A DNA stretch of 64,000 bases from Picochlorum sp. SENEW3 (lineage: Eukaryota). Shown here piece after piece: positions 33,601 to 43,859 of this stretch; positions within the stretch are counted from its first letter, which is position 1, and each line of letters begins with the position of its first letter. Below the pieces are notes generated by a model that saw nothing but the letters and a program-made list of their open reading frames with translations, made no database searches and had not been told where the DNA came from. Location: NCBI GenBank assembly GCA_034226945.1, contig CP120454.1:434001-498000 (forward strand), written 5' to 3'. Both the position numbers and the translations under genes were made by a program.

Positions 33601-36600
33601 TTAATTTTGATTTGCCCATCAGATCGTCCGTGGAAATATAAAACGCCATTCTCATCCCGAGACACCAAGTCACCTGTCTTGTACAGGACTCTATAAGAAT
33701 CAGAAACTGGAGAATCATCGCTGAAAAATGGATTTGGAATAAAGTGCTTTTTAGTCTGCTCTTCATTGTTAATGTATCCTAAAGCTGTCCTTGGACCACT
33801 CAGCAAGAGCTCTCCGATGGTGCCAATCGGTTTTTGCTCGTAGATATTGTCAGGACTGACAACATATGCCCTCACATTGGGATCTGGAGGGCCAAGTGGT
33901 GCATCTGGCACTCCAGGCAGCATGAGGGCTGCTGTTGCAGAAACTGTAAATTCTGCTGGCCCATACGCATTATATATCCCATCTGATAGGCCTGGAATTC
34001 TCTGAAGTTCTGCAGCCACAGAGCATGGCAAAGGCTCTCCCCCAAAAACCAAAGTCCGAAGTTTAAGGGAATTTCTCCTCTTGACTAGTTCTGGTGCATA
34101 CAGCTCAATTAAAGATGGGACCTGATCCATGAGTGTAATGCCATGTTTTTCACATATTTCTGCGACTGCTCGAGCATCAGTCTCGAGTCCTGATGGAATA
34201 ATGGAAAGACAGGCACCACAGGCTAGAGCTGCAAGAATGATGGCAATGTGAGGGTCAAAAGCTGGTGACGTGGCTAGAGCGAAGACATCTTCTCTTGATG
34301 TGTGGAACAAATCAATATAAGATCCACAAACTATATCCACCAGTCCACCATGGGTCAGCACGACCCCCTTGGGCTTCCCAGTAGATCCAGAAGTAAAGAG
34401 AATACAGGCTTGATCCTTGTGAGTCATCGCATCGGCTCTCAGGGTTGCAAAATCACTGGGTGTGTCAGCCAAGGCATCTTGATGTTCTGATATGACTGAA
34501 GGGAGCCCTTTCAAGCTATCACACGATACCACAATTGTGGATACTCCTTTTTCCTCTGCCTTTTTTCGAAGATCCTCAGAATCTTCACGAGCTGAAACGA
34601 GAATAAGATGTGATCTAGAGCTCGTTAAATACTCCGAGATTCGCCCCAGGGGAAGCCTTGGCTCAAGAGGAAGATATACCCCACCTAGGAAGAAAATGGA
34701 CAGCATGCTGATCACCAACTCCTCTGATCTTGACGCATAAACAGCAACGCACTTTCCGTGAAGCCCCTCAGGATGCTTTCTTCTCATATCCCGTATAGTA
34801 TAATAGACCATCATGAAAACTTCATGATATGTGTATCTTCTCTGATCACAAAGCAAGCAAAGTGAATGGGGATGCTGTTTCACTTGAGCATAGAATTGGT
34901 CATGCAGAAGTGGCATCTCAAAGTACTTCAGACATTCTGGGCCTCTAGAGAGCATGTCAATCTCAATTTTTGCAGATTTGGATAATATATTCATCTCCTC
35001 TAGCGGTATGTCCATGCCATGTGTGCATATCGAGTCTAACAGTGTCTTATAGCAGTCAACAAGTCGGTTTATCTTGGCAGCACTCAAAATTGATGTCGAG
35101 TATTCTACATCGAGATACGCACTGGACTTGTTATGGGCATGAACTTCAAAAGTGATATCAACTTGCGAAATTTGTGGATCAGGCAAACTGTAGGGTGATG
35201 TCATGATGTCGCTTCCAAAGTCTATTCTAGGTTCTTCTTCCTCCAAATACTGAAACAAGACCTGCGAACAAAGGGGTAAGAATGCATCCTGATTTTGTTA
35301 TCGAGCACCAAAAGACATATAATAAGCACATACCTGGAATACTGGATTGAAAGGACTTCCTGGAGGCACATTCGCAGCCGATACTATCTCAGGGAAGGAC
35401 AATTTCCCATGTTTTATACCCTTCATAATCTTCTCATGTATTCTCTGTGTAAATGTACCAAATTTCTCTTTCTTGTTGATTTCACCTCGTATAGGAAGTG
35501 GAGAGACAAAATACCCTATTAAATTCTGGATTGACGCAATGTCTCTCATTGCAGCAGGCAAACCAATCACCACATCATCACTATTTGACCATTTGGAGAG
35601 GAGGACATGAAAGGCTGCCAAAAACAGAGCGTTGAGCGAAACTCCAATCTTGCTGGCTGTCTTTGCTAAAACAACTATCTGAGATTCTGATAAAAACTCA
35701 AATCGAGAGCAGATACCCTCCAAACCACTTAGATGGGATCTGGAAAAGTCCAAGGGAAAATCAAGCCTCTCTGGGATGCCTTTGAGCTCTTGAGTCCAAA
35801 ATGCGATGTGGTCACGATTGTTCTGAGTATCCAGCCAAAGAATATAATCTGCATATTGACACCCCAAAGGATCCATCGGTGCGCTCCAATACGCGAGGCT
35901 CAACTCATCACACAGAATTCCAAGCGACCATGCATCGCTTACAGCATGATGGGTGACTATTATCAAGTATTGCTGCCCTGGGGTATGCTCGGCAGATACG
36001 AGCGTCGCTCGAAGGAGAATATCACTTTGGAAGTCAAAATAATGGTTTACTTCGCACTTCATAACCCTCTTGAGCTCCTGAGCATTCTCTACAGAAACAC
36101 GAGAAAGCCCAAAAGAACCATGTATCAGCTGGCCAGAAAGCGTCCCATCTGGCTTCACATGATATACTGTCCTTAAAATTTCATGCCTGCTGACGATAGT
36201 CTGGAAAGCATTCTCTAAAAGATTAACATTCACATTATCAGAGATTGCAAAGCATAGACTCAAATTGTATGCTCCTGCAGCCTCTTTTCCTGCAATTGAA
36301 GCGACTGTCCACATCTGCTGTTGGAATTTCCCCAGAGGCCTCTTGGAGTCATTCCATACATGGGGAGTCAATCTATTTGCAGAGTCATTGTTTTCTTCCA
36401 GAAGCGGTTCTAAAGCCTCTGCAAAATCTCGCAGTGTTCTATGTTTGTATAACAGGGCCACTGGAATAGGTTCTGATAGACCCAATGCACTCTGAATCTC
36501 TGCATTAATCTTAAAACCCTTGATGGAATTACCTCCAGCTGCAAAGAAATCGCTCGAATCCTTTATATGCGATCCAAGTGCACTTTTCCAAAATGTTTTC

Positions 36601-38315
36601 ACGATAGCTACATGTGGATTCACTTCCTCGCCTTCTTCTTCATCCAGTATTATGTTGTCCTCTGGAACAGTCAATGCATCAATGCGCACCTTTCCAGTTG
36701 AGGCTACTGGAAAAGATTCAAGCGGAACTATACAAGCAGGTATTGCAGCTTGCACCAACCTTTCCGAGCATTTCTTATAAAGCAACGAGGGGTCAATGTG
36801 CTCTGGTGTGACCCAGGCCACGAGGGCTTTCTCTCCCATGCGCGGACGCACATCAACCGCTGCTCCAGTGACTCCCTCAACTGATACAAGGAGAGATTCA
36901 ATCTCACCCAACTCTATTCGGACACCCCGTATCTTCACCTGCCTATCTATTCGTCCGTGCAGTTCCAATTCACCATTCTCCATCCAGCTCACGAGATCTC
37001 CAGTTCTGTACGATGTTGCAAAATAGGACTGCACCCAAGTCTCATCAATTTTATCCCTTATCATGTCGAATGCGGGGTTTGACACAAACTTTTCCGCAGT
37101 TTTCTTGGAATCTGATAAATACCCCAAAGCAACTCGAGGGCCGGCCACCAACAACTCACCGCGCACGCCGGCATTTGAGATGACTTTGCCTGTCTCAGGG
37201 TCCACCACACAACAGAACACATTTGGGTCTGGGGGACCAATACTGATACGTGCATCATCTGGCCTCACAAATGAATGCGTCACAGTAAATGTCTCTGTAG
37301 GTCCATATCCATTTATACATCCTCGAGGAGATAAATTTGGGAGAAGGCTATACAATGACGATGCCAAATTTGATGGAAAGTTCTCTCCCATGCACTCCCA
37401 CTCTCTGATTGTAGTTATTGCTCGAGGCATTTTCTCCATCTCACCAACGTATGCCACTGCCAGAGTCGGAAGAGTATGTACAATAGTCACAGAGTGCTTC
37501 ACAACCAAGTCCAACCAATATACCGGGTCGAGGTGACCATGAGGTTTACACATGACCAAAGCTGCACCGGATATAAGAGGCACAAATACTGGGTGCACAT
37601 GAGCATCAAACGATATCGAGTACGACAGCTCAAACACATCCCTATCAGGATCAACGTTTAATCGCTCTGCGTGATTATGCACGGCATCGATCAACCCAAT
37701 ATGAGGGTAGCACACTGGCTTTGGCTCTCCAGTGGTGCCACTGGTAAAGATGATGTACGCTGCCCCATCTTTGCTCCCTCCGTTCTCATCGACTGGCAAC
37801 ATCGCCGCATCTTCCAGACTATCATAAAATCTATCATCAACACGCACATGCTCACACGGATCAGAAGAAGCATTGCAGATATCATGTGCCTCTGATTCCA
37901 GCCCTTTATCAAAAGAAGAAAGAATCAGGGAAAAACCTGCAATTGAGGCACATTTTTTGTGCCTTTCCTTGGGGAAATCTGGATCCAGAGGAACATATAC
38001 ACATCCAGAATGGTGAACAGCCAATATTGTTGCCACAAGTACCGCAGATCTTGGCATATACACGCCAATCCTTGGGCTTGTTGCATCCGCAACTTTTCCC
38101 TTCTTCTGGGACTGCCGCTCTGTTGTCCTGCTCAGTGCCTTCTCAATCAGGCATGAAACTTCCCTTGCTTTTACAGAAATCTGACCATATGAAATCGTTG
38201 AGCCATCCCAATCAATCACACATCGAGCTTTTGGCTTTTGGGTCGCCAGTCGAGCAAACGTGACATGCAGTTGGCACTCCTTCAAACGGTCAGGGCGGAG
38301 GCACAGGCACTCCAT
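30624..38315 (-). CDS. Non-ribosomal peptide synthetase A-T-C-A-T with a Pls/PosA-type membrane terminal region, about 2539 aa (intron 35333-35262)
   Basis: Two complete A domains (FTSGTTGEPK / FTSGSTGKPK, YGPTE / YGPAE, YRTGD / YKTGD, TGK). T domains FFAAGGNS and FFELGGNS. C domain HHAVSD. The GTATGT...CGCAG intron restores PVFQ|VLFQ. Three tail repeats xTP....LG.xV, two with KW..VG.LKPG, plus TM helices and hexapeptide-like runs. Confidence 0.9.
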
Positions 38316-38546: not shown

Positions 38547-40067
38547 CTACAGGTGAATGGAATGAGACTTGAAGGGTTCAGACCCCGAATCTGTACTATT
38601 ATGAGATGCCATTTCATTGATCTGCTCTTTCAAGTTTGCCAGCTCTGCTAGCACTAATTGTTCAAAGGTAAGACCCCGTGGGCGTACAGAAGCTCTCCGA
38701 GGAACACCTCCTTCCTCGCACATCATGTCCCTTTCATGTTGCTGGACAAATCCGTCCTGAATATCGCTCGAGCCATCCACGTATCCCACCGGCGCCCCTT
38801 CATACCGCTGTTCATATATATCTTCATCATTGAGATATCGGTCCTTCTTTGACATTCCTTTACTTACCATTTTTTTCAGGGATCTATGAAGGCGGGACTT
38901 GGGTATCAAGAATGGGAACATGGTCCGGAACCACGCCTTTTCCAACAAGGATGGCTTTGCATACAGCCACAACCTGTACACAATGACGAGAAGAATCCCA
39001 AACCCAACAGCAGATCCTAAAATCACCCATAGGCCTGATACTTCATTCCACGTCACTACTGTATACTTTTCTTCTACATTATCAGTCTTGCATGATGCAA
39101 GCTGGACATCAATGTATTCTTCCTGCAGATTCTCAATCTCCCCTGCTTCAAGTAGCTGTCTCATACGAATATTAAACACATCCATGAATTCCGCATTCTG
39201 CCAGGTCGATCGAGGAAACCCTACGGTCTGATCAAAAACATCGATTTGTGAGCCCACAATCATCGTCTGACAATTATCTGCGTCCAAACTCCTCAGCGCC
39301 GAATCATCCAACACCACCGCAGACACCAATCCATTCACCAAATCCTCAGCCATCTTTCTCTCATCAGCTACATCACCCCACGGGTACGGTACTATTTGCA
39401 CCTTGTACTTGTCTCGCAAGTCCTCTTCATACCCAGACCACGATGCGACAGCCCTCCCCGGCAAATCTTTGACACTACGAATGCTATTATTCAACTGACT
39501 GACTGTCAAATTCGCCGTCAGATTTGCAGAATACAGTGCCATCAGAATGAACACAACAAACGACCACACAAGCCCGCTCTGCAGCGTGGCAACAGAAAAC
39601 CTCAACCCCTTGTCAATCCTCTCCTGCCACGGACCCATACCAGCCGGCGCAATATCACACTCCGTGGTATTCACCAACAAATTCATCATCTCATCCCACT
39701 CCAAACACCGCCACTCGATCATGTCGTACGTCCACCCCATGAGAGGCATCATTGCTTTGAACAGGTCAATCTCATACCCTGACCAATACACTGGATCAAG
39801 CCCCACACAGCGCACAGCAGGCGTCCATTCTGACGTACACACCCTCAATTTAGTATTATTAGGAAACCAGGGAATAGAACCCACTGGGGCAGGAGACACA
39901 TCTTCCTCCTCTGGAGCAGGAGCAGGAGCAGCCGCGGGGTCAGGAGCAGGAGCCTCCCCCTGACCATACACAGCATGCTGTGTACACAACAGAACCAGTA
40001 CTATGAATAGTCTATTCTTCACCATCATGGCAGCCTTAAAGAGCGAATGAGGTACTTTGTTATTCAA
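38547..40067 (-). CDS. Ionotropic glutamate receptor-like protein lacking M1 and the pore loop
   Basis: Signal peptide, S1 (GYEIDLF...ERIDKGLRFS), M3-like LYSANLTANLTV, S2 and M4 (VSGLWVILG). S1 runs straight into M3. Confidence 0.75.
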   Translation of the reverse strand: MNNKVPHSLFKAAMMVKNRLFIVLVLLCTQHAVYGQGEAPAPDPAAAPAPAPEEEDVSPAPVGSIPWFPNNTKLRVCTSEWTPAVRCVGLDPVYWSGYEIDLFKAMMPLMGWTYDMIEWRCLEWDEMMNLLVNTTECDIAPAGMGPWQERIDKGLRFSVATLQSGLVWSFVVFILMALYSANLTANLTVSQLNNSIRSVKDLPGRAVASWSGYEEDLRDKYKVQIVPYPWGDVADERKMAEDLVNGLVSAVVLDDSALRSLDADNCQTMIVGSQIDVFDQTVGFPRSTWQNAEFMDVFNIRMRQLLEAGEIENLQEEYIDVQLASCKTDNVEEKYTVVTWNEVSGLWVILGSAVGFGILLVIVYRLWLYAKPSLLEKAWFRTMFPFLIPKSRLHRSLKKMVSKGMSKKDRYLNDEDIYEQRYEGAPVGYVDGSSDIQDGFVQQHERDMMCEEGGVPRRASVRPRGLTFEQLVLAELANLKEQINEMASHNSTDSGSEPFKSHSIHL

Positions 40068-40398
40068 CCACGACCCTTGTCAAGAGTTCACACGCGCTCT
40101 CTGGGACGCCCTCTATCAACAACCATTCCTCTCGTTTGTACAATTGTAATTATCTGGATGCATATTTTTTTGGCATTGTTTCTAGGTAGCCGACGTGACA
40201 AGGGAACGAACTCATTCCCTCGGTCATGCTGATACCCGTGGTGAGAGAGATGGGCGTGTTTTTTTTTTCAAATGTTTTATTTATTTATTGGCACTCGTGC
40301 CATCCATACCGGTGCTGTCTCCCACACGAATCAATCAAGTATCAAATGAATTTGGATTGCGACTCCTTGAAACATATTGAGGAATAGTGCAGTCTGTC

Positions 40399-41166
40399 AT
40401 GATGGCGAGCACCAGAGCCCTGGGGTACCGTCGCGCATGGCAATCCTCCACAAGGAGACCCAAGAGCCACAACAATACGACTCTTGGTGGTGGCTTCAGT
40501 GGGACGACTCGAGTACAACCGAAAATTGATGGACGTTGTCACGCCCTGGATTCGTATCAGGTGGATTATGAAGCACTCTCGACAGCATCGCCAGTGACAC
40601 TGGTGTCCACACAGAACCAGGTGGTACCAACGGCCCTGTGGAGGGAGGACGAGACTTGCGTGTTTGCCTTGGGAAGGTCCATGGGATGACCTTTCTGCTG
40701 GCAATTGGCGACGCAGCTCGAGCGAGATGTCAAGCCATTGCTGGATGAACAAGGTATTGCCATGTATCTGGGGTCCATTGGTACCCCAGAGAGGGGCATG
40801 GCATTCTGTGATCAAACTGGGTTTTCGAGGGATCGATTACTTGCTGATCCGACCGGGTCTTTGTATCCTCCTTTGACTATGAAAAAGGGAGTCAAGGAGA
40901 CGTTTTTCAGCAAAGAAACGCCCATGGCGATTTGGAGGGATATGCAATCAGGTAGGATTGAAGACTTGAAGCGTGTGATGCAGCGGTGGACCAAGCAAGA
41001 GTTGTGGATTCCTCCGGAACAGGATCAGGCCTTTCAGCAGGGAGGGATGGTGATTTTCAGAGGGAAGGAGACTGTGTGGGTGCACAGAGATGCAGCCACT
41101 GGTGATCATGCGGATTTGGATGAGGTTGTTCGCATTGCCACATCCACCCTCTCGAATGCTGTGTAA
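40399..41166 (+). CDS. SelU/AhpC-TSA (PRXL2-like) redoxin with an in-frame TGA at 40687-40689 (UxxC)
   Basis: ORFs 40387..40689 and 40705..41166 share a frame. The joined protein reads GRSMG*PFCWQLA...LLADP...FQQGG...DHAD and has a transit-peptide-like N-terminus. Confidence 0.85.
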
Positions 41167-41561
41167 ACATCATGATGCAAGGAGAAGAAAAAGAAAAAGA
41201 AGATCTTCTAGATGATGATGATGGGAGTATGACGGCCTTTGCCTTGTCTTTTTTTCCTTCTCCTATTTTTTACCCCCCTTCTTCTTCTCCAGTTGCAGTT
41301 CTGTTTACGTGATTGAGAAGAAGAAAGATAAGAAGAAGGAAAAGAGGCATGGATTGAATGGACTGATAATGAGGACATGAAGATAATGAGATTTGTGTCT
41401 GCCCATCCTCACATGTAAATAATAAAACAAGTATATGTACAGCATATCTGACAAGAAGATACCAGTGTGTATGTGATTATTCTTCTGGATCATCTTGTTG
41501 TGGCATTGTCCTGCTCGTATTATTACTATATTAATTTGTATTCAAGAATAGAAAATATACA

Positions 41562-42950
41562 ATGCTGATTCATGGTCACCATCCAAGATTCACCAGTGTC
41601 GTAGCAACAGCGACAAAAGTCTCGTCCCAAGGCCAATGGAGGGACAAGGCAAAGCCCATCGAATCTGGTAGTATGTATCCAGCCAAGGAGAATTGCTCAT
41701 CCTGTGGGTTATGCGATACCTATTTTGTCAGTCATGTCAAGGAGGCTTGCGCATTCCTTGGAGATTCAAATATCATGACATTAGAAGAGCGAGTTCACGG
41801 TCGACAGAGGGATTTGGATGATCCTGATGAAGTAATATTTGGGGTTATACAGGAAACGTTTAATGCGAGGGTGGATCCACCCATCAAAGGTGCTCAGTGG
41901 ACTGGAGTGGTGACTGGCATTGCTGTTGAAATGTTGACTCAGGGCAAGGTGGATGCGGTTGTGTGTGTGCAGTCTCAAGAGGAGGATGAATTTGCTCCTC
42001 GTCCCTTTGTAGCGACATGTGTTGAGGATATTATCGCTGCCAAGGGGGTGAAGCCGTGTCTGTCACCCAATCTGAATGTTCTTGCTACTGTGGAAGCATT
42101 GGATGTGAGGCGGTTGCTTTTCATCGGTGTAGGGTGTCAGGTGGAGGCGTTGCGTGGTATTCAACCGTATTTGAATGTGGGTGATGTCTATGTTATTGGG
42201 TTGAATTGTACGGATAATGGAGAACGGGAGAGCTTGAACAAGTTTTTGAATGCAGCTTCGGAGGATCCAGATACGGTGACGAATTACGAGTTTATGCCAG
42301 ATTATCGAGTGCATTTGAAGCATCGAGATGGTCATTATGAAAAAGTACCGTACTTTTGCCTTCCTGCGCAGGAATTGAGCGATGTCATTGCGCCTTCCTG
42401 TTTGAGCTGTTTCCAGTATCCAAATGATTTGGCGGATCTCACGGTTGGGTATATGAAAACACCGTATGATTCAAAAACCCCTATGAACGAGCATTTTCAG
42501 AGTGTCCTTGTGAGGAATGAGAGGGGAAGGGAATTGATTGATGCGATTCGATCCGTGTCAAAATTAGAATCTCAACCACCATATGGTCATGAAGGTGTGC
42601 TCAAAAGACAGAGTCTTGTGGTGCAGACTGTGGCGGCGGATGATGAGGCAAAGTGTGGTGAGGGGCCAACAAAGGGAGCGCCGCGATGGTTGGGGGAGGT
42701 GCTCGCATGGGTTCTGTCTGGACTGGGTCCACGTGGGATTGACTTTGCAAAGTATTCAATAGAGTATCATTATCTGAGAAATTATATTCATGTGATGAGG
42801 CACTGGAATGGCAAAGCTGCTGAGAAGCACATTCCAGAGTATGTGTATAGAATTGTCAAGTACTATGATGAGAAGACTGGAGGTCTTATTTCGAAACGAG
42901 CATCATTACAGGCACCATTTCCTGGTGCGAAAACCAAAGTGAAAAAATAA
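41562..42950 (+). CDS. HCAR: 7-hydroxymethyl chlorophyll a reductase (FrhB-like)
   Basis: YPAKENCSSCGLCDT, GAQWTG, GVGCQV, NCTDNG, VPYFCLP and APSCLSCF motifs. Confidence 0.92.
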   Translation: MLIHGHHPRFTSVVATATKVSSQGQWRDKAKPIESGSMYPAKENCSSCGLCDTYFVSHVKEACAFLGDSNIMTLEERVHGRQRDLDDPDEVIFGVIQETFNARVDPPIKGAQWTGVVTGIAVEMLTQGKVDAVVCVQSQEEDEFAPRPFVATCVEDIIAAKGVKPCLSPNLNVLATVEALDVRRLLFIGVGCQVEALRGIQPYLNVGDVYVIGLNCTDNGERESLNKFLNAASEDPDTVTNYEFMPDYRVHLKHRDGHYEKVPYFCLPAQELSDVIAPSCLSCFQYPNDLADLTVGYMKTPYDSKTPMNEHFQSVLVRNERGRELIDAIRSVSKLESQPPYGHEGVLKRQSLVVQTVAADDEAKCGEGPTKGAPRWLGEVLAWVLSGLGPRGIDFAKYSIEYHYLRNYIHVMRHWNGKAAEKHIPEYVYRIVKYYDEKTGGLISKRASLQAPFPGAKTKVKK

Positions 42951-43859
42951 TTATTCATTTTCTGAAGATGTTGTTGCTGCCATAAGTTTTTCTAAATCTT
43001 CTTCGAATCCGGCGTCTTTGAGTTCCAGGGGACCGAGAAACATGCCAAACGGAACTCCACCATACTTGTCCGAGTGATGCATTTGATGTGCCACGACAAC
43101 CTTTCTCAGCATGGGGACCTTGGCGATGGGCCCCACTGGAAATCTTCTATGAACGAGACCATCGTGGACAAACATGTAGGAGATGCCAAAGAGCGTAATG
43201 CCGAGTCCTGTTCCAAAGAAAAGCCCTCCAATCACATCTGGTCTCATAAATCCGTACCAACAGAGTCCTATAGCTGGAGCAGCATTCATCAAGGCATAGA
43301 TATCATTCGCCTCGAATGGTCCCAGGCGTGGCTCATGATGACTTTTATGAATGGCCCATCCGAGATCATTCTCATGCCACATGTATCGATGAACCCAGCG
43401 GGCATACATTTCCATCCCAACCATACCCCCGAGACAGAGAAGAAGCGTACCACACAATTCTTCATATGGAAAATCTTCACCATGATCGAGATGCCACGAT
43501 ATTCTATAATATGTCGCACATATTGCTAGGAAAATCACCAATGTACTTGCAGCGACAGCTGCAAACTGATATGTAGCCCTTTCTCTGAGCCTCTGTTGTC
43601 GTCTCACCCGTCGCTGGTCGTCCAACTCCACTGATGTCGTCGAATTTTCTTTTCCCGTTGCAGTCATCTTCTGCTTGTTCCCGCAATGTGCAGATGTACT
43701 CTTCATCACACTAGTAGATGCCCACCGAGAGATGGATGGAGATGCCCACAAGCTCCTCCTCGGAGGAGGAGGCTGGTGCCCCAGAACCAAGAGGGGTGCA
43801 CGTGCACCTCTCCTGCATACAGGCATCGACGCCATTGCCGTCTTAGACAATGCCTCCAT
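42951..43859 (-). CDS. CHYB: Non-heme di-iron beta-carotene 3-hydroxylase
   Basis: His boxes HRYMWH, HKSHH, HDGLVHRRFP and HQMHH; GPFEAND. Confidence 0.95.
   Translation of the reverse strand: MEALSKTAMASMPVCRRGARAPLLVLGHQPPPPRRSLWASPSISRWASTSVMKSTSAHCGNKQKMTATGKENSTTSVELDDQRRVRRQQRLRERATYQFAAVAASTLVIFLAICATYYRISWHLDHGEDFPYEELCGTLLLCLGGMVGMEMYARWVHRYMWHENDLGWAIHKSHHEPRLGPFEANDIYALMNAAPAIGLCWYGFMRPDVIGGLFFGTGLGITLFGISYMFVHDGLVHRRFPVGPIAKVPMLRKVVVAHQMHHSDKYGGVPFGMFLGPLELKDAGFEEDLEKLMAATTSSENE

Follow-up and report, generated by a model that had tools for sequence, protein, structure and literature searches.

A gene on the plus strand of the window (the whole 64-kb stretch of DNA analyzed here) is very probably a genuine selenoprotein gene, judging from conservation of the codon and its frame, with the UGA at codon 97 read as selenocysteine (Sec). 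The encoded protein is a SELENOU/PRXL2 (AhpC-TSA_2) thioredoxin-fold oxidoreductase by its family match, its redox motif, and its fold. Translation of frame 1 across the coding sequence (+) meets one internal stop only, the TGA at 40687–40689, which lies in the context ...CVFALGRSMG-TGA-PFCWQLATQLERD... and translates as ...FALGRSMG*PFCWQLATQ... (Table 1). In the list of open reading frames (ORFs), the gene appears as two halves in the same frame, at 40387–40689 and 40705–41166. An earlier reading made from the DNA letters (the sequence-only reading) had described two same-frame ORFs parted only by this TGA, in GRSMG-TGA-PFC, and that description was exact. The hidden recoded gene of ~255 aa that it proposed is also borne out, with a single frame passing through the TGA to give 255 residues with Sec at position 97, and with the codon conserved as TGA or TGC.

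The protein begins with an extension that is disordered, basic, and hydroxyl-rich (residues 1–51). On the strength of the structural model and its composition, this N-terminus may be a candidate organellar transit peptide, possibly for the plastid. Extensions of similar composition, not conserved in sequence, are also present in Cys-form homologs.

Table 1. Coordinates of the putative selenoprotein gene, its protein features, and elements of its 3'UTR within the window
Feature	Position	Strand	Description
Sec-form SELENOU CDS (predicted)	40399-41166	+	256 codons including stop; 255 residues, Sec at 97; TAA 41164-41166
In-frame TGA, predicted Sec codon U97	40687-40689	+	Conserved in relatives; unchanged in runs X5, X13, and X14
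Redox motif U-P-F-C, U97 to C100	40687-40698	+	Aligned to GCPFC (Cys homologs) and GCVVC (human PGFS); start of helix 98-117
N-terminal extension, residues 1-51, Ser/Thr/Arg-rich	40399-40551	+	AlphaFold2 pLDDT <50
AhpC-TSA_2 (PF13911) domain, residues 107-232	40717-41094	+	Pfam search of the recoded protein
Candidate SECIS	41229-41366	+	AUGA-C 5' base and U-GA (41364-41366) 3' base; long imperfect hairpin; apical CUU-repeat/GAA-repeat stem
17-nt block ATGATGGGAGTATGACG, holding the candidate 5' core AUGA (41229-41232)	41218-41234	+	Identical in the L001 3'UTR
ATGGACTGAT, 3' strand of the basal helix (GGAC) and UGAU core	41358-41367	+	Identical in L001; collinear with the 17-mer in both
Diverged second copy ATGGATTGAA of ATGGACTGAT	41349-41358
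Possible polyadenylation signal TGTAA	41414-41418	+	RNA contig ends at 41419

The in-frame TGA occupies a catalytic Cys position and is conserved in relatives

We searched 5.8 billion proteins and recovered 23 homologs. The eight closest (53–93% identity, 145–155 aa) all start a short way past the TGA site; they are truncated gene calls that lack the active site, as had been anticipated in the claim that standard annotation would truncate this gene. The redox-motif region is missing from the gene calls of 12 of the 23 homologs, and the other 11 carry RSxGCPFC. Alignment with these GCPFC homologs, and with the GCVVC of human PRXL2B, places the TGA at the first Cys of CxxC, where the sequence-only reading had put it. 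One of the truncated calls, P0003 (65% identical), starts with M-F-S-W-N where the window has P-F-C-W-Q, so the relative from which it derives may carry U-x-x-S in place of U-x-x-C.

A scan of metagenome contigs yielded 30 related loci (32–80% identity), many of which are near-duplicates, leaving about nine or ten distinct sequences. The codon aligned to the TGA of the window is TGA in 25 of the 30 loci and TGC in five, and neither TAA, TAG, nor any other codon was found at this position in the 30 metagenomic loci. Conservation of the TGA in relatives had been named in advance as a check on the recoded gene, and these counts agree with it. Sec-type sequences fall into three motif groups, namely RSMG-U-PFCW (the window, L001, and L002), RSLG-U-PLCQ (L003 and L010–L013), and RSFG-U-FFCW (L008, L009, L014, and L016–L030), and the Cys codon is found in a single group (L004–L007 and L015). 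Within the last Sec-type group, the frame of L016–L026 breaks at ...PKPEQG and is followed by GT-like sequence, a pattern that suggests an intron at this point.

We compared rates of substitution on the two sides of the codon using L001, the closest relative (80% identical). Upstream of the TGA (50 codons), the dN/dS ratio was 0.245, and downstream of it (148 codons) the ratio was 0.081. Low values on either side imply that both parts are kept as protein in this frame, and decay downstream of the TGA, looked for by this comparison with L001, was not found.

The TGA recurs across sequencing runs and in an unspliced RNA contig

Contigs from four public runs were placed on 40200–41600; as assemblies and not raw reads, they inform on presence, not on expression level. 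Three runs from three studies bridge the codon, with X5 record 12 covering 40411–41150, X13 record 1 covering 40434–40759, and X14 record 7 covering 40603–41166. The listed differences from the window explain all of those reported for these contigs (5/5, 6/6, and 10/10, respectively). None of the X5, X13, and X14 contigs differs from the window at 40687–40689, and none has TGC or TGT there. Third codon positions account for 17 of the 23 differences listed in the CDS, and 16 of the 23 are synonymous. The X14 run is an oligo-dT metatranscriptome, and its record 7, an RNA contig, is unspliced and colinear with the DNA across the TGA, which implies that there is no splicing around codon 97. A further contig from the same run (record 8, 41137–41419) represents the 3'UTR up to 41419. 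The outcomes that had been named beforehand as speaking against a recoded gene were absent: there was no TGC or TGT, no splice around the TGA (X14), and no decay downstream.

We give almost no credence to explanations of the TGA as an error of assembly, as a recent nonsense mutation in a pseudogene, or as part of an intron. Annotation pipelines adopt such a reading by default, and the entries nearest to this protein in the database are truncated calls, but the TGA is present in three runs of three studies, including the colinear RNA contig. A pseudogene is further opposed by retention of the TGA in relatives down to 32% identity and by the downstream dN/dS of 0.081. Genome-wide reassignment of TGA was also considered and ruled out, as eight of the 25 ORFs of at least 250 aa in the window end in TGA (the others in TAA, n = 11, or TAG, n = 6). 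The L001 ortholog likewise uses TGA as its own stop. TGA is therefore an ordinary stop codon here, and only codon 97 is special.

Family assignment and predicted fold

The recoded protein matches Pfam family AhpC-TSA_2 (PF13911) with an E value of 6.5e-18 and a score of 65.6 bits, where the cut-off is 27, covering profile positions 2–113 of 114, and no other credible Pfam family was found in it. PF00578, which represents typical peroxiredoxins (AhpC-TSA), is absent from its Pfam matches at E up to 1; a precomputed PF00578 match is present on a few Cys homologs. In a sequence search of the PDB, human prostamide/PGF synthase (PGFS) was the sole convincing match (E 0.0016 with the single sequence). 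A profile of 24 family members matched the same human protein at E 8.6e-7, with G-[U]-PFC aligned over G-C-VVC. This protein, PRXL2B, is SELENOU3, one of three human SELENOU paralogs according to a published account (PMC13134290).

The AlphaFold2 model, which was built on the family alignment (mean pLDDT 82, with at least 90 for 161 of the 255 residues; pTM 0.77), has a thioredoxin-type fold beyond residue 51, and U97 sits immediately before helix 98–117. Foldseek ranked human PGFS first to third (E 1.8e-7 to 5e-6), followed by PrxQ/BCP and other thioredoxin-fold oxidoreductases. The assignment to the SelU/AhpC-TSA redoxins made in the sequence-only reading holds, given the PF13911 match and the recognition of PRXL2B by both profile and fold.

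Human PRXL2B (PDB 9us9/9usa) is the best match by profile (E 8.6e-7) and by Foldseek (E 1.8e-7, target-normalized TM 0.77–0.85), and its CxxC aligns with the U-P-F-C of the window protein. However, the two proteins are 17–20% identical, and PRXL2B is a cytosolic Cys form without an N-terminal extension, and an alga is not expected to contain its prostaglandin substrates. Cys-form AhpC-TSA_2 proteins from Chlamydomonas sp. UWO 241 and Pavlovales sp. CCMP2436 belong to the same family and length class as the window protein and are 35–50% identical to it. Full-length Cys forms have RSxGCPFC where the window has RSMG-U-PFC, and both have N-terminal extensions. Several Cys-form proteins also have long acidic insertions near the C-terminus, whereas the window protein does not.

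SECIS elements of relatives and the case for selenium

Eukaryotic SECIS elements have a kink-turn core of AUGA and GA at the base of helix II, and an unpaired AA ~10–13 nt above it. We found canonical SECIS elements 60–130 nt past the stop codon in L003, L008–L014, and L027–L030. Those of L008/L009, L014, and L027–L030 take the form AUGA-C-(GC)n-UU-AAA...U-GA, ~110–130 nt after the stop, and those of L003 and L010–L013 comprise a helix I (AGCAAU/AUUGCU), AUGA-C-ACCAG...CUGGU-U-GA, an unpaired (C)AA, and a long mini-stem. When the scan was run without requiring C and U at the core, the best candidates of L001, L003, L008, L010, L011, and L014 had a C after AUGA facing a U before GA, and in L013 a candidate of the AUGA-C...U-GA type ranked second. 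Across these relatives, the SECIS spans 46–72 nt. The scans gave no convincing SECIS for L002 (65% identical), in which the conserved AUGA-C closes a 6-bp hairpin only, and the AUGA-C...U-GA scan of L016–L026 found no SECIS within ~1.8 kb after the TGA.

The presence of these elements in relatives bears on whether selenium is involved at all. UGA 97 could be read through independently of a SECIS, or translation could stop there and resume from an internal start downstream, and in either case no selenium would be required; we judge this very unlikely. UGA followed by C is a leaky stop context, and a C does follow UGA 97. Moreover, the 3'UTR of the window has no canonical SECIS by Rfam or by scans, and there is no tRNA gene in the 64-kb window. 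Against this, relatives that share the TGA have canonical SECIS elements, the codon falls exactly on the catalytic Cys of homologs with TGA or TGC only in the 30 loci, and purifying selection acts in this frame on the 50 codons upstream. A product made from an internal start would, according to the model, also lack beta-strands 66–92 and the redox center.

A long 3'UTR hairpin is the leading SECIS candidate

The two halves of the candidate core at 41229–41366 lie in blocks shared with L001 (Table 1). The block ATGATGGGAGTATGACG is the longest 3'UTR block common to the window and L001, and 0 of 200 shuffles reached 17 nt (maximum 12). Among the differences listed, no strain difference falls inside it. 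In L001, this block and ATGGACTGAT close a 46-nt hairpin (GUCC/GGAC, UGUAU/AUACA, UCUCU/AGAGA). In the window, the core halves are separated by 132 nt, with the CUU-repeat/GAA-repeat stem on top, and there is no AA dinucleotide on the 5' arm of the hairpin. The basal helix of the window strain contains a G-A mismatch, and a T at 41235 in other strains restores GUCC/GGAC pairing as in L001. Folding stability does not exceed that of shuffled sequence, either for the window hairpin (z -1.77; 11 of 200 shuffles fold as well) or for its L001 counterpart (z +0.65). Those strain differences listed within the hairpin are all on the 5' arm, and no compensating change on the 3' arm is among them.

Purine-rich (GAA/AAG) and pyrimidine-rich (CTT) tracts extend over 41175–41357 and make several alternative pairings possible. 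Small strain insertions occur in these tracts (+TTT after 41257; +TT or +CTT after 41277), and the 3'UTR of the L001 ortholog has a short CU/GA version of them only. UGUAA is the green-algal poly(A) signal, and a possible copy is located at the end of the 3'UTR (Table 1).

General SECIS searches of the window were negative. Rfam gave no SECIS in 39500–42500 (E up to 10), in the whole window (gathering scores), or in 41160–41440, and on the repeat hairpin it returned sub-threshold miRNA-like matches only. However, Rfam also returned nothing for relatives with textbook SECIS elements (13 loci searched at E up to 1 and four at E up to 10). Its negative result for the window is therefore uninformative and weighs little. 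Under default filters, a covariance model (R1) derived from five group-B SECIS elements matched none of 12 sources. Once the filters were removed, its alignments were nonsense both in the window, where the best E was 0.52, and in the positive control L008 (E 5.9), and L001 gave a weak match (E 0.12); the model was dropped as too sequence-specific, having missed positive controls. SECIS groups B and C did not align in MAFFT, leaving no joint model. A strict SECIS pattern scan of the 3'UTR proposed a candidate at 41172–41218, which was rejected as poor (inner energy -4.1 kcal/mol). The strict scan of the whole window on both strands gave 14 matches, none adjoining the gene and none SECIS-like behind a TGA-interrupted ORF.

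A true selenoprotein gene could instead have its SECIS in another 3'UTR structure, for example one formed by AUGA 41369–41372 and the ACATGAAGAT block, or a larger fold including both structures. We consider this possible, if on the unlikely side. The hairpin at 41229–41366 is without the AA motif and far longer than the elements of relatives; L001 has a second candidate (1266–1326) comprising AUGA-N10-AAGA and a mini-stem, which gave the best, though weak, match to R1; and ACATGAAGAT is common to the window and L001. Yet the window counterpart of that second candidate has 5 base pairs only and no GA after its 3' strand, and strains differ within it at 41375 and 41385. AUGA 41229 lies in the sole long block of the 3'UTR that is conserved, and the AUGA-C...U-GA core of 41229–41366 agrees with the SECIS elements of relatives. 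Provided that the gene is a selenoprotein gene, we therefore favor the hairpin at 41229–41366 as its SECIS with moderate confidence, on the basis of this core and its conservation.

Genomic neighborhood

Long uninterrupted ORFs are tightly packed in the window, which has a G+C content of 45.8%. The downstream neighbor of the selenoprotein gene (41562–42950, +) encodes 7-hydroxymethyl chlorophyll a reductase, whose best matches from named species are in Chlorella vulgaris (62% identity) and Micractinium conductrix (64%), with up to 90% in other matches. In L001 and L002, too, the putative selenoprotein gene and the reductase gene are syntenic. Convergent with the reductase gene is an FA_hydroxylase-family gene (42951–43859, -), for which a carotene-hydroxylase-like reading is suggested; the stop codons of the two genes abut with no base between them, so their 3'UTRs must overlap on opposite strands. 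Directly upstream of the selenoprotein gene, a 493-aa ORF (38547–40028, -) matches the PF00060 ligand-gated ion channel family (E 2.3e-10) and resembles a glutamate-receptor-like channel. Beyond it lies a 1005-aa ORF (35298–38315, -) with AMP-binding (E 1e-55), PP-binding (E 1.5e-7), and Condensation (E 7e-58) domains, which resembles a single-module NRPS-like enzyme.

Relation to known algal selenoproteins and proposed mechanism

SelU was reportedly first described by Castellano et al. in 2004. Sec-containing SelU has been reported in Ostreococcus tauri, O. lucimarinus, and Thalassiosira pseudonana (PMC2375036). Another account places Sec forms of SELENOU in over half of 36 algal genomes and counts the family among the four most widespread algal selenoproteins (PMC7539508). 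Algal SELENOU resembles the window protein in that Sec comes first in the redox motif, in its thioredoxin fold, and in having Cys forms in other lineages. The link between algal SelU and the window protein runs through PF13911 and human PRXL2B rather than through direct alignment with published sequences. The gene adds one more SELENOU of the Sec form, from a green-lineage alga that has seen little sampling, and it is expected and ordinary for an alga because Sec-containing SELENOU is widespread in algae.

Another algal selenoprotein with an AhpC/TSA-type domain and UxxC, AhpC_b of Thalassiosira oceanica, is described as having prokaryotic Cys homologs only (PMC7539508). The window protein differs in having many eukaryotic homologs and in matching PF13911 and not PF00578.

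The 3'UTR hairpin also differs from published elements. Long apical mini-stems occur in green-algal SECIS elements from Ostreococcus and Chlamydomonas, and most Ostreococcus elements have a G preceding the UGA core (PMC2375036). In contrast to the Ostreococcus elements so described, the window candidate has an A at this position, is far longer, and has no AA motif.

Taken together, we propose that a single nuclear gene in a compact, intron-poor green-lineage algal genome encodes a 255-residue SELENOU/PRXL2 oxidoreductase, in which UGA codon 97 would be read as Sec and form a U-P-F-C redox center at the start of helix alpha-1. Recoding would be driven by a SECIS in the ~260-nt 3'UTR, for which the hairpin at 41229–41366 is the best candidate. 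By analogy with established eukaryotic Sec decoding, this SECIS would recruit SBP2 and eEFSec carrying Sec-tRNA to UGA 97. The U-x-x-C motif suggests that the enzyme could reduce peroxides or disulfides through a U97–C100 selenenylsulfide cycle, and its Ser/Thr/Arg-rich disordered N-terminus may direct it to an organelle, possibly the plastid.

The putative selenoprotein gene points to use of Sec by the host alga, and its recognition corrects an annotation trap, in which the eight closest database proteins are without the active site. The wider interest lies in whether an unusually long 3'UTR hairpin that lacks the AA motif works as a SECIS. A specific proposal, which we consider unlikely, is that Sec is inserted via a non-canonical SECIS combining the kink-turn core AUGA-C/U-GA with a 132-nt, strain-variable CUU/GAA-repeat hairpin and no AAR motif at the usual distance. 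If true, this would mean that a SECIS can stay functional even when microsatellite-like repeats have enlarged its apical part and the AA motif is lost.
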